From the NCBI GenBank assembly GCA_046350815.1, contig JAXLZO010000001.1, positions 150,001 through 182,000 of the forward strand: a stretch of 32,000 nt of DNA, written 5' to 3'. Each line of letters opens with the position of its first letter. Within the stretch, counting starts at the first letter, position 1. A model generated the notes under the pieces. It made no database searches and was not told the origin of the DNA. It saw only the letters and a program-made list of their open reading frames with translations. The stretch is from Candidatus Saccharimonadota bacterium (GTDB taxonomy: Bacteria; Patescibacteriota; Gracilibacteria; BD1-5; UBA2023). Made by a program: the position numbers and the translations under genes. This document shows, piece by piece, positions 1-32,000 of the stretch.

Positions 1-1535
1 TTCACACGACTATGAGCATCAATGATAGTTTTGAGACTCTCACTCAATATGAGAAGGAGTTCACGATCATACGATGATACCATCTCTGAAGAGAGAGAAT
101 AATCAAATGATACGTCACCAGCTTGTCGTAAAATTTCTTGAGCTCGAACAGAGGCATACTGAATATACGGTCCACTATTTCACTCAAGTGCTGTTGCCTT
201 ATCAGTGTCGAATACAACATCTTTTTCCCTGTCTTGAGAGAGGTACGCATATTTCACAGCTCCGACAGCAATAGCATGGAGATCTTCATCTGAGAGTATG
301 CGATGTTTTTCCTTAAGCACGGACGCAACGCGATCAAAGGCATCATCTATGAGAGTCTCAAGACGGATAATATTTCCTTTTCTTGTGCTCATAGCACCAT
401 CTTTCAATCGTATAGCACCATTTCCAGCATGGAAGAAATCTACTCACTCAAGGAGTTCAGGCCAAGCAAGGTGAGTAATAGTAAAGACCTGTCGAAAATG
501 AAGTGATTGGCGCATATCAGCAAAATATCCAATCGTTGTCGGTTTCCAACCATTCGTGAGCCGATATTTGACGCACGCTATGTCAGAAGTGATATAGAGC
601 ATCGCACCATCTTTTTTCTGGATGACCGTTGATGGAAGTTTGAGCGATTCATCGAATATAACAGCCACGCTTCCATCTTCGTTGCGTGTAGCAATCCCCT
701 TCTCCACTAACTCATCCACAATCATTTTCATGGTATGTGTGAGAAGCGGTATATTTTTCAACTCCTTATTAATTTCAGTAATTCACTGATAAAAGCTCTC
801 ACCAATATGATAGTCACATTTCACACCAATAATATTCATCATGCGATCAACCTCCGTATTGGTATAATTCGTGAATTCTCTCCAGAGTTCTACATGATAA
901 GGATTCCCTTTTGATAGCTCTACAAAGGCATCACGACATTCCTGATCTACTTCAGGATTTGCCTCCACATCAGCTGTAATCTTCACATAGAGATGAAAGA
1001 GATGATCGATCGGTGATTTTTCAAGCTCCTCTCGATTTCCATATTTTTCAAATGCGACAATAAGTTTACCGAAGATGCCACCCCAATCACCAATGTGAGA
1101 ATCACTCGTCACGCGACCACCGAGAAACCGAGTCATCTCAATCATAGATTGCCCAAGAGCAGGAGTACAGAGATGCCCAATATGCGCAGGCTTTCAGACA
1201 TTGACACCAATGTAGTCAATGATTGTATGAGTCCCACTGAGTAAATTTTGTGGTGTGAGCACGAGTGATTCTTCTGTAAGTGCCACAATACCATCAGTAG
1301 AGAGAATAACATTCACATAACCACCTATAGTTGAGAGGGACGCAATATATGAATGTCCTGAAAGCGAGTTGGCAATATTCTCCGCACAGATATTTGGATG
1401 TATACCTTGAGACTTTGCAAGAGCAAAAACATTCAGCATGATATCACCATGTTCCTTTTTCGGCGGACGTCCACCCGCAATGAGCGATACATCAACAGAA
1501 AGCGAGGAAAGGAGGGATTGAATGAGTTTTTGCAT
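1..1535 (-). CDS. argS: Arginyl-tRNA synthetase. The C-terminal end runs off the window start. Four in-frame TGA are read as Gly.
   Basis: Track fragments 1194-1535, 783-1145, 444-761 and 180-407 share one minus frame and are separated only by TGA. I translated 1-179 by hand and the frame stays open to base 1. Motifs seen: KPAHIGHL (HIGH-type) and LE-G(TGA)-NSGPYIQYASVRA, typical of the ArgRS C-terminal domain. Confidence 0.9.
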
Positions 1536-1984
1536 ATTTTTTAAGAGAGATAATATGAAAAATGGCTTGTTTTACAAGCGTAATTCGTATGCAAATTGAG
1601 TACAAACCCCAAAAACTGTACAGATTATGCATACAAATATTTAAAAAATACTTTTTTCTATTTCTTTTTGAATAATCCTTTCCTAATAAGGAAAATCACC
1701 TATTATTTCTATACAAAACATATTATATATATTTGTCTACAGAAGAGCTGTGCATTTTTTCTCATAATTTGCTAAGATACATGTGTCGGGAACAAATACA
1801 CAAATACTTCCCTGAAAACAAATTAATATAATCGTTGCTGGGTGAGATGGGCCACCATACGCCATATGGTGAAACCCTATATTACCAATATCATACCAAT
1901 ACAAATAAATAGGTAACAAAGTTTTTTTACTTCAGTTATCTGCAATTCTTGCAAATATAATGCAAACTAGAGTATATCAGGCCT

Positions 1985-2187
1985 CATGTCTGAGTACCAA
2001 AAAACAGGAACGGGTGAACTTAGTCCTGGATAATCTAAACTACCCAAATCCAGCTTCGCAAATGCCCTGGCAGGCAAACAAATTCATCGACTCTGATGAG
2101 CCTATTTAATACCTACGGGTAAGTGCTCCAGAGCGAAATCATACAAATCTGGAACCATATCTACCAAGACAGGTCCAGATTTTTTTA
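1985..2187 (+). ncRNA. Candidate structured RNA, about 200 nt, unknown class, in a long non-coding gap.
   Basis: A weak promoter (TTGCAA, 18-nt spacer, TATATC) lies at 1949-1978. There is a long-range helix AGGCCTCAT(1980-1988)/ATGAGCCT(2095-2102), internal hairpins CTGGA...TCCAG and CAGGA...TCCTG, and the terminator ATCTGGAACC...GGTCCAGAT+T7 at 2147-2187. Confidence 0.22.
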
Positions 2188-2192
2188 TACCT

Positions 2193-2221
2193 AAAAACCC
2201 TCAATATATATTGAGGGTTTT
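2193..2221. terminator. Hairpin terminator downstream of the 2220-2768 gene.
   Basis: The sequence is AAAAA-CCCTCAA-TATATA-TTGAGGG-TTTT. Confidence 0.6.
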
Positions 2222-2768
2222 ATTCATCTTCTCTTTCCTCGGGATAGAGTGTCCAGCCATGTCATCCATACAAAGATTCTACCTTATGAACATGTTCCTG
2301 AAAAACACTATCAACAATAACATGAAGTGCTTCTTGTGAATCATCTCCACAGACACAATTACGCAGCCACGGATAATATTTTTGCCTTTGACAAAAGGTT
2401 ATATATTCTACACTTTTCCACAATGTGAGGATCTTTTTTGTGTTAAGTTTGCTCTGAAGGCTACTGAGAAGCGGATATCACTCATATCATCGTGATTGCT
2501 CACATAATTCTTGATGAATAAGGAGATAAGCCATCATCTGCTCAACTTCTCAAATATATGAGTCAATTTGAATCTTTCGTGTACGAACTTTTGCAAAAAA
2601 TACTTCGGCCTGTCGACTCAATTGTTGCATCTCTCGAAAAAGATCATCCTGCATATGAATACCAGACAAAACAAATGCCATTCTAAGTTTTTCTCGATCA
2701 TCAACATGCCCCCCATGAACACCAAGATCATCATATACTCGTGATACCCCCTCTCAATCGTTATCCAT
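2220..2768 (-). CDS. Hypothetical protein, 182 aa, five in-frame TGA.
   Basis: Hand translation from the ATG at 2768 reads through 5 TGA with no TAA/TAG until the TAA at 2220-2222. A hairpin terminator follows immediately. It is missing from the ORF track because the standard code fragments it. I recognised no family motif. Confidence 0.5.
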
Positions 2769-2887
2769 AAGAAAATAATATATTTATTATACTTTAACTA
2801 TTTTTGATAATATGTAAATAAAAACGAAAATCGTTGTATTTTTAGAGATATTCTCTATACTCAATCTCACTTTTCTCACTTTTCCTT

Positions 2888-29981: not shown

Positions 29982-30441
29982 ATGTAAGAAATGAAAAAGT
30001 ACTATGTTCCCGAAAAGACACCAAAGAAAAATCCGATCGAAAATCACTCACTACCGTATCTGTTTGATAATCACCAGCAACCAACGTAAGCTCTACTTGA
30101 TCGATTAATTCTTGTTGAAAAAAAGCATTATACACCATAGCCCCACCGAGGATAAAAAGTTTCTCAATTCATTTTCACTCAGCAAAATCAAGGAGCTCTG
30201 GGATGGATGCAAATGTCTGAATTCCATCGATAGGTTTTTTACTTAAGACAAGATTTTGACGACCAGGAAGAGGACGAAATGCTTCTGGCAAGCTCTCATA
30301 AGTACGCGAACCCATAACAACCACTCCACCCATCGTAAGCTCTCGAAAATGTTTCATATCCTCAGGGATATGCCAAGGGAGTGTGCTATTTTTTCAAATT
30401 CCACACATCTCATCCATAGCAAGTACAGCCGTGATTTTCAT
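29968..30441 (-). CDS. folA: Dihydrofolate reductase, 157 aa, three in-frame TGA. Overlaps the thyA start by 14 nt.
   Basis: The ATG at 30439-30441 gives [16 protein letters not shown](TGA 30394-30396)[16 protein letters not shown]...[12 protein letters not shown]...LILGG, the canonical DHFR motif order. Confidence 0.88.
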
Positions 30442-30450
30442 AGAGAAAAA

Positions 30451-30879
30451 TTAGCTTTTACCAGTAGTACCAAACCCACCACGATCTGATGTATTCATGG
30501 ATGTAACCACTTCAAACTCTGCACGCTCCACTGGAACAAACATAGCTTGTGCTATTCGATCTCCAGGATTGAGTGTAATGCTTTCTTTTCTCATATTTAT
30601 AACAGCGCACTTGATCGTATCGTTATCACCACAATAGTCTTGATCAATAATACCAAAACTATTCACAAACATAAGTCAAAAATTCTTGAAAGTAGACGAT
30701 CTTGGGCAGAGCATAAGTACATAACCAGGGGGTGTGGCAATGACAACACCCGTCTCCACAAGCGCATATTCACCCGGAGCAATCGTTTTTGTCTCACTCA
30801 CGGGCATATCAAAAGCACACGCGCCAGCTGTCTTATACTCAAGCATAACTCACTCAGGAAGCTTTGTTCGAACTATCAT
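30451..30879 (-). CDS. dut: dUTP diphosphatase, 142 aa, two in-frame TGA.
   Basis: The ATG at 30877-30879 is in frame with track ORF 30451-30672. Motifs: AGACAFDM, PRSS, GIIDQDYCG and RGGFGTTG. Confidence 0.88.
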
Positions 30880-30915
30880 AGTAATGAAAGGAAATGATAC
30901 AAAGTTAGTATAGTA

Positions 30916-30955
30916 AAATTTCCTGAAGTAAAAAATTTTTTACTTCAGGAAATTT
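30916..30955. terminator. Perfect 40-nt palindromic terminator between the L,D-transpeptidase gene and dut.
   Basis: The sequence is AAATTTCCTGAAGTAAAAAA/TTTTTTACTTCAGGAAATTT. Confidence 0.65.
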
Positions 30956-30998
30956 ATCTTTTATCAAAGAGAAATTATTAAATACAAGGCATAAGACC

Positions 30999-32000
30999 CT
31001 AATCTATATAAACCGTTGTACCAATTTTTGACCAGTCGTAGAGCCATTTTACTGCTTCATAGGGAGTATTCACACATCCATGGCTTCCTGCAGATGTATA
31101 GCTCGATACTCAGAACTCTCTACGCCAACAATTATGCTTATTGCAGGCATCGTGAATACCATAGGCACCATAGAACGCAATCCAATAATCAACCCAGAGT
31201 TCGTATTTTTCATCTGGAAAAGGAGATTTTAAGATTTTATTCCGTTGTTTATTGTACACTTGAAATACCCCTGTTACGGTTTCATGTTTGTTACGGCCAC
31301 TTGTAATGGGTGTTGAGAGGACTAATTCCCCATCTTCATAAACGTACATTTTTTGATCCAAGAGTGAGATAAATACTTGTGAGTATATATCAAAAAATGG
31401 TGCGGCAGGAGGAGTATTGTTTCCCCATTTTTGTTTCTCAGAGAGAACAAGATCCTGTCGCTTGATACGTGCAATATTACGAAGCCTCTCAGACTCATCA
31501 CGATACTCTTGGAGTACACGAAAAGAAGACTCATATGACTCCTTCAGATTTTGATAAGAAACATTAGCTAAATTCTCCTCGGAAAATATATCATGATATG
31601 ATTGCAAGATAGTCACTTCATCAAAAGAGAGTTCACCATCATGATTGACGCGATAAAAAGAAGCGAGAAAATTAATCTCATGTTCGAGTGCGCGGATTTT
31701 TTGCACGAGTAATACCCTTTGAGCTGATTCAGATGCTCGTAGTGCTGATCGCACTTCTTGTTGAAATGGAATCATGGATCCAGAATCATCATCTCATGAT
31801 ACATCAGAAGCAATTTCAGTATTTTCTTGGGGAATATATCCTGAAGAGAGATTTGAATTCTGCGATTGTTGTATATGTCCTTCCTCTGCATTTGTCTTGA
31901 ACAAAATAGGTTCCTCAAGTTGGAGGACTTCTCATTTAAGAAAATGAATACACAAAACAACATATGACAGAGTTGAGCGTATACCTCATTGAATCACCAT
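30999..32000 (-). CDS. L,D-transpeptidase (YkuD-domain) protein. The frame is still open at the window end.
   Basis: Track ORF 31110-31775 extends through a TGA to the TAG at 30999-31001, giving ...YGIHDA...SAGSHGCVNTPYEAVKWLYDW (His/Cys catalytic motif). Upstream the same frame stays open through TGAs to base 32000, where the last codon is ATG. Confidence 0.75.

Follow-up and report, generated by a model that had tools for sequence, protein, structure and literature searches.

The 32,000-bp stretch of DNA analyzed here (the window, meaning the whole of it; GC content 38.8%) appears to encode its proteins in a genetic code in which UGA specifies glycine. A first-pass annotation of the window had proposed this reading, NCBI translation table 25, and it is supported by the alignment of in-frame TGA codons with glycine in homologous proteins, by conserved domains that run across these codons, and by the gain in open reading frame (ORF) length once TGA is treated as sense. 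We consider it almost certain, from sequence comparison, that the window comes from the chromosome of a member of Candidatus Gracilibacteria (BD1-5-type; candidate phyla radiation (CPR)/Patescibacteria) using this table. The sequence shows UGA decoded as glycine beside GGN, UGG as the sole tryptophan codon, termination exclusively at UAA and UAG, and CGA and CGG still read as arginine.

A large gain in ORF length is evident only when TGA is freed. Under table 11, stop-to-stop ORFs of at least 100 amino acids (aa) total 8,225 aa, the longest being 448 aa, compared to 29,704 aa and a longest ORF of 1,930 aa with TGA as sense; freeing TAG or TAA yields nothing comparable (11,270 and 13,464 aa in total, respectively). 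We also made a greedy call of non-overlapping ORFs on the whole window, freeing one stop codon each time. Coverage was 65% under table 11 (60 ORFs, mean 116 aa) and 91% with TGA as sense (34 ORFs, mean 286 aa), relative to 70% with TAG as sense (60 ORFs, mean 125 aa) and 81% with TAA as sense (68 ORFs, mean 128 aa). The same call applied to three Clostridia control loci gave 84-90% coverage with or without TGA as sense, and in three Gracilibacteria loci coverage increased from 24-70% to 87-92% once TGA was sense. That TGA is a sense codon in the window and not a stop is supported.

Curation of the greedy call with Pfam and by inspection of alternative ORFs gave 31 genes, which occupy 89% of the window and contain 9,494 codons (Table 1). 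Twenty-eight of these contain in-frame TGA, the exceptions being the genes for RRF, SIMPL, and NusB. The first-pass annotation had counted 31 of 34 coding sequences with TGA; the totals differ with the gene calling, and three TGA-free genes appear in both counts. Altogether there are 140 in-frame TGA codons, equal to 21% of glycine codons, and the glycine content is 7.0% when they are counted as glycine and 5.5% when they are not. As had been stated earlier, no joined gene contains an internal TAA or TAG, and the true stops are TAA or TAG only (21 TAA and 9 TAG in the 30 genes whose 3' end lies inside the window). The C-terminus of ThyA, directly before TAA, coincides with that of its homologues. 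Single Pfam stretches span the TGA codons of ArgRS, CofD, S1, the Cys/Met-metabolism pyridoxal phosphate (PLP) enzyme, GlyRS, TilS, RNHCP, RNase III, TrpRS, ThyA, DHFR, dUTPase, PilC, and YkuD; the Cys_Met_Meta_PP match, for example, reaches 334 bits across 11 TGAs and the Thymidylat_synt match 375 bits across 4 TGAs.

Table-11 ORF tracks therefore split nearly every gene at its UGA codons into same-frame fragments, and the systematic fragmentation reported for the first-pass ORF track is borne out. The PLP enzyme gene is broken there into the same-frame pieces 7964-8098, 8186-8524, 8630-8794, 8855-9052, and 9053-9124. Public contigs from other samples that encode an identical SIMPL protein, found by searching with this TGA-free protein and all no longer than 6.8 kb, show the same pieces in their table-11 gene calls, among them two Cys_Met_Meta_PP fragments (112 and 65 aa) and a 405-aa GlyRS without its N-terminal part. 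Fragmented calls of this kind, on the public contigs as well, could also come from degraded, pseudogenised, or misassembled sequence in the standard code, with the TGAs as real stops or errors. However, the interruptions are specific to TGA, without one TAA or TAG beside the 140 TGAs; there are no frameshifts and the fragments stay in frame; essential genes are affected; and the TGAs fall on catalytic or structural glycines. The same pattern is found in dozens of independently assembled relatives, and the identical SIMPL protein in contigs of other samples, such that the probability of degraded sequence is negligible. Selenocysteine insertion and programmed readthrough were considered as well and rejected, as the 140 sites align with glycine and occur in nearly every gene.

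In order to keep the homology searches unbiased, TGA was translated as X, and for seven proteins the residue opposite each X was read from the best PDB match, with the alignment lines re-parsed by script (Table 1). Glycine was opposite TGA at 24 of the 33 aligned positions and tryptophan at none (binomial p ~1e-20 for glycine, relative to a 7.3% glycine background in the targets). The internal codon controls from the same alignments carry more weight than this p-value: GGN was opposite glycine as often as TGA was (66 of 99 positions), and TGG was opposite tryptophan at 6 of 10. The alpha/beta hydrolase aligned weakly, with glycine opposite 5 of 7 aligned TGAs, including the first glycine of the G-x-S-x-G elbow, and a second PDB match of this protein has GG opposite its H-x-x-G oxyanion motif. 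Both this tabulation of consensus residues and the re-calling of genes by code had been proposed in the first-pass annotation; the re-calling came out in favor of TGA as a sense codon and the tabulation in favor of glycine.

Six individual sites had been named earlier as TGAs on conserved glycines, in RNase III, the hydrolase, GlyRS, TrpRS, DHFR, and ThyA. Each is an in-frame TGA in the context described and at a conserved glycine position, for the hydrolase according to weak alignments (Table 1). The GlyRS site lies in a column with TGA in four sequences, including that of the window. In ArgRS, one TGA is located at the conserved FE-G-N(T/S)xPY motif. The remaining two TGAs of TrpRS are at variable positions.

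The pilins provide an internal control at position 6 of the N_methyl profile, which is encoded by TGA in two of them and by GGC in the third. In the pilin at 24778-25458, F19 is at profile position 7, hence x18 is at position 6. The earlier claim that TGA encodes G(-1) of the prepilin cleavage site in three pilins is confirmed by Pfam for two; the third case, a TGA at 24720-24722, is in a pilin-like protein with the sequence KQ-x-FVAIIVV and no E5, which had no match in the Pfam search.

In order to find relatives, the GlyRS protein was scanned against one genome per GTDB species, which returned 80 loci. Matches at 61-80% identity are mostly labelled as metagenome-assembled genomes (MAGs) of Candidatus Gracilibacteria, with others labelled 'Candidatus Peribacteria', 'Patescibacteria group', or just 'bacterium'; they are followed by Clostridia at 51-54% identity. 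The Gracilibacteria-type loci share the table-11 ORF deficit of the window, and the Clostridia loci are without it. We aligned 74 GlyRS sequences and counted TGA codons in well-populated columns. Ninety-nine of 160 TGA codons are in columns with a glycine plurality among the other sequences, a class that includes only 32 of the 467 columns, and many are in columns that are 100% glycine among the 41 sequences without TGA. All ORFs of the window were also compared by blastp with a six-frame ORF database (TGA as X) made from the 80 loci. Because gene order around GlyRS is not maintained among these loci, GlyRS was the only gene that could be followed through the clade; the others had at most 1-3 matches there and were assessed by PDB alignment. 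Membership of the window in the recoded CPR clade is supported by the GlyRS matches and the locus fragmentation. In GlyRS, the closest species representative shows about 77-80% identity, which probably makes the organism distinct in species or genus from all representative genomes.

The same alignments bear on translation table 4, in which UGA encodes tryptophan. This table is used by Mycoplasmatales, several insect endosymbionts, and some Eggerthellaceae. As in those organisms, UGA has changed from stop to sense in the window and table-11 calls are fragmented; the ORF statistics are the same for tables 4 and 25, and tryptophan would be possible, taken one by one, at a few TGAs in variable positions. 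The amino acid is what differs, glycine in the window versus tryptophan in table 4. In addition to the PDB comparison, with 24 TGAs opposite glycine versus none opposite tryptophan, only 1 of the 160 GlyRS TGAs is in a column with a tryptophan plurality, tryptophan content would increase to 2.2% from 0.7%, and the relatives are Gracilibacteria. The tryptophans of the ThyA IWDEW motif are encoded by TGG, as the first-pass annotation had noted in arguing against table 4. We regard table 4 as extremely unlikely, and TGA as glycine, not tryptophan, is supported by these sequence comparisons.

The recoding itself has been described. UGA as glycine was reported in 2013 for SR1 and Gracilibacteria (Rinke et al. 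2013; Hanke et al. 2014, PMC4032931), with the Absconditabacteria (SR1) case attributed to Campbell et al. 2013 where it is cited in PMC4032931 and PMC8629427, and it has been confirmed by proteomics in a BD1-5 bacterium (PMC4032931). Table 25 in Gracilibacteria is also covered by a Codetta screen (PMC8629427). Several hundred genomes of the GTDB class JAEDAM01 (orders BD1-5 and Absconditabacterales) are treated as table 25 in a recent benchmark (bioRxiv 10.64898/2026.05.24.727570). Like the described Gracilibacteria, the window has UGA in frame in most genes and aligned with glycine, UAA and UAG as stops, and UGG for tryptophan. Its GC content of 39% is inside the reported range of 0.21-0.53, the GlyRS genes closest to its own are in Gracilibacteria MAGs that show this pattern too, and one relative has a tRNA(UCA) with glycine identity elements. 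Nothing in kind sets it apart from them.

The earlier placement in either Gracilibacteria or Absconditabacteria agrees with the GlyRS relatives and is narrowed by the arginine codons to a code other than that of Absconditabacteria. Absconditabacteria are a sister clade that also reads UGA as glycine, with the same proposed tRNA-Gly(UCA) mechanism, but the predictions for them include CGA and CGG as tryptophan codons, both in rare use (PMC8629427). A code of this type would have some precedent even within Gracilibacteria, some of which are predicted to read CGG as tryptophan (PMC8629427). In the window, however, CGA is the commonest arginine codon (139 per 10,000 codons; CGG, 24 per 10,000). 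CGG is found at conserved arginines in RNase III (E-R-LEFLGD), GlyRS (GLS-R-L), and ArgRS (KY-R), and CGA at those of ThyA (GT-R) and the PLP enzyme (LI-R-FS). Because CGA and CGG occupy conserved arginine positions and CGA is the commonest arginine codon, and with relatives labelled Gracilibacteria, we give the Absconditabacteria-type code only a slight chance. On this codon evidence, the code is the plain table-25 code of Gracilibacteria. The window has every table-25 feature that was tested, and it lacks those tested for table 4 and the extended Absconditabacteria code.

According to descriptions of the clade, UGA would be read by a dedicated tRNA-Gly with anticodon UCA, which would be charged by GlyRS via the usual acceptor-stem set (G1:C72, C2:G71, G3:C70, and U73), and release factor 2 (RF2), the terminator at UGA, would have been lost. 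A tRNA scan of all fetched related loci with ARAGORN identified one tRNA(UCA), at 2447-2525 (-) of locus L032. It is an ordinary cloverleaf (Rfam RF00005, 43.8 bits) and not a selenocysteine tRNA, with the pairs G1:C72, C2:G71, and G3:C70, discriminator U73, and the anticodon loop C-U-U-C-A-A-C. That acceptor-stem identity set is the one used by Shulgina and Eddy as criteria for tRNA-Gly(UCA) (PMC8629427). The L032 tRNA supports the mechanism at the level of the clade, and not directly for the window genome. There is no prfB-like gene among the 31 window genes, although no search directed at RF2 was made and 32 kb cannot establish its absence. A lineage that differs from the described table-25 clade, whether by having no dedicated tRNA-Gly(UCA), by residual context-dependent RF2 activity, or by forming a separate branch, is very unlikely, and nothing in the window points to such a departure.

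Several observations weigh against a table-25 assignment. No tRNA(UCA) was found in the 32-kb window by tRNA scan and Rfam, the sole tRNA being a tRNA-His, which is also the sole Rfam match over the whole window, with nothing in the ORF-free gaps. The one tRNA(UCA) detected belongs to a relative with a GlyRS just 66% identical to that of the window, and the decoding machinery of the window organism is something we infer from its clade. About a quarter of the TGAs are at variable positions. One TGA in the PLP enzyme gene, at 8543-8545 (+), gives HSC-x-K in place of the HSATK found in each of the five PDB homologues shown. It is the sole TGA opposite a strongly conserved residue other than glycine, the threonine before the PLP lysine. 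The PROSITE signature of Cys/Met-metabolism PLP enzymes requires T-K. This site is compatible with glycine and offers no support for it; HSC-G-K may be a clade-specific active-site variant. The claim that TGAs sit on invariant glycines thus holds for the six named sites but not for the variable quarter or for this threonine. Finally, some close relatives have the NCBI label 'Candidatus Peribacteria' (L014, L026, L028, L030, L033, L038, and L042). In the six whose 20-kb loci are long enough to test, table 11 breaks up the genes just as it does in the Gracilibacteria loci, and the labels look like taxonomy-assignment artefacts; if table 11 applied, these records would be mis-annotated.

Gene content bears on whether the window could come not from a cellular genome but from a mobile element, such as a phage, that has recoded a stop codon by itself. 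Recoded phages exist, and phages associated with CPR bacteria are among the subjects discussed in PMC10746230. The genes here are of a housekeeping type, including ArgRS, GlyRS, TrpRS, RRF, S1, NusB, RNase III, TilS, ThyA, DHFR, and a type IV pilus operon, and no structural or replication genes of phages were seen among the window genes with Pfam. GlyRS is also located on long Gracilibacteria MAG contigs. There is hardly any likelihood of a mobile element as the source, and we retain the assignment to a Gracilibacteria chromosome.

Table 1. Genes, TGA sites, and spurious antisense ORFs in the window. Residues opposite TGA are those of the best PDB match named.
Feature	Coordinates	Strand	In-frame TGA	Details
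ArgRS	3-1535	-	4	3' end beyond window; 6ao8: G, A, D, one gap
Hypothetical protein				among the 31 curated genes
Spurious antisense ORF	2842-3477	-		opposite RRF and longer than it
RRF	2888-3421	+	0	
CofD/YvcK-like protein	3478-4611	-	8	2ppv: G at 4, N, Y, one gap
Ribosomal protein S1				among the 31 curated genes (Pfam)
tRNA-His(GUG)	6011-6087	-		sole RNA gene found
Spurious antisense ORF	6078-6839	-		opposite MazG-like and NUDIX genes
MazG/PRA-PH-like protein and NUDIX hydrolase	6366-7223 (both)	+		
Alpha/beta hydrolase	7252-7941	+	10	
Hydrolase nucleophile elbow G-T-S-M-G, first Gly	7552-7554	+		TGA; LLGLSMG in 7wwh, weak alignment, E ~1e-4
Cys/Met-metabolism PLP enzyme	7964-9124	+	11	387 aa; PF01053, one stretch 9-379; 1i41: G at 10, T at 1
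GlyRS	9129-10523	+		
GlyRS K-x-FIYQGSEIYGG	9174-9176	+		TGA; column Gly in all 68 sequences with a non-TGA residue
Membrane protein				among the 31 curated genes
SIMPL-domain protein	11269-12003	+	0	
TilS	start 13043, 3' end 12081-12086	-		
RNHCP protein	3' end 13036	-		
Leucine-rich repeat (LRR) protein	13459-19230	-	33	1923 aa
Small, probably secreted protein	19239-19649	-		
RNase III	20468-21199	-		6v5b, domain 1: G at 3
RNase III ERLEFL-G-D signature	21029-21031	-		TGA; Gly in all PDB alignments shown
NusB			0	among the 31 curated genes
TrpRS	22312-23289	+	3	6mtk: G, K, S
TrpRS HLGNFM-G-A	22375-22377	+		TGA; Gly in three best PDB matches
DUF2726 protein				among the 31 curated genes
Pilin	24778-25458	-		TGA at G(-1), 25405-25407; RG-x-FTLIE; PF07963 N_methyl
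Second pilin	25461-26057	-		TGA at G(-1), 26013-26015; NQ-x-FTLIE; Pfam N_methyl
Third pilin	26060-26656	-		GGC at G(-1), 26603-26605; RS-G-FTLIE; Pfam N_methyl
PilC, two possible PilO/PilN-like proteins, and a pilin-like protein		-		among the 31 curated genes
ThyA	29088-29981	-	4	3uwl: G at 2, D, F
ThyA K-G-FPLLTTK	29832-29834	-		TGA; Gly in three best PDB matches
DHFR	29968-30441	-	3	7rzo: G at 3
DHFR I-G-K motif	30394-30396	-		TGA; Gly in three best PDB matches
dUTPase	within 29968-30879, with DHFR	-		
Spurious antisense ORF	30247-30981	+		opposite DHFR and dUTPase
YkuD L,D-transpeptidase				5' end at window edge

Where TAA and TAG are the only stops, real genes acquire long but spurious ORFs on their opposite strand, two of which exceed in length the genes that they overlie (Table 1). 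Greedy longest-ORF calling with TGA as sense over-calls because AT-rich sequence then has only TAA and TAG as stops, and choosing the longest ORF, whether with table 25 or with table 4, assigns the wrong strand at such places. From the greedy call, the ORFs 2842-3396 (-), 6078-6785 (-), 30256-30981 (+), 25093-25464 (+), 21820-22290 (+), and 19703-20053 (+) were judged spurious because their composition is odd, they lack domains, or the opposite strand has a better ORF. Three AT-rich stretches of about 450-820 bp each (1536-2219, 19650-20467, and 21865-22311) contain no convincing ORF in either code and had no Rfam match at the gathering threshold; promoters, small genes, or undescribed RNAs may lie there.

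Two pairs of genes overlap on the same strand, the start of TilS with the end of RNHCP by 8 nt (13036-13043) and ThyA with DHFR by 14 nt (29968-29981), which is consistent with a compact operon organisation and a reduced genome. The 3' end of TilS (12081-12086, -) reads VIE-TGA-TAG, with a TGA codon immediately before the true stop. One possibility is that this TGA is an ancestral stop that is now read through by one codon.

The type IV pilus genes form a block on one strand (23808-28945, -) that encodes two possible PilN/PilO-like proteins without a Pfam match, PilC (T2SSF), the three N_methyl pilins, and one larger pilin-like protein. The LRR protein consists almost wholly of leucine-rich repeats (LRR_8, 365 bits, 17 stretches); a hydrophobic, signal-like stretch is present at its N-terminus, and two internal repeat units of about 70 aa are almost identical to each other. 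At the repeat position LPxxF-G-xL, glycine is found in 18 of 33 repeats and TGA in one. The protein could plausibly act at the surface of an episymbiont or in its interaction with a host. The small protein encoded upstream of and adjoining the LRR gene contains cysteine.

Glycine at UGA is already known biology; it is correct for this window and essential for its annotation, and it is not new. The value is thus practical and not conceptual, as the window needs annotation with table 25, and table 11 breaks 28 of the 31 genes. Under table 11, spurious ORFs on the opposite strand can also outrank real genes, as 2842-3477 (-) does over RRF. Window findings that rest on the table-11 ORF track, such as short ORFs, 'pseudogenes', and apparent intergenic gaps, need to be re-evaluated. 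Membership in the recoded CPR clade explains the type IV pilus operon, the giant putative LRR surface protein, and the reduced metabolism of this organism.

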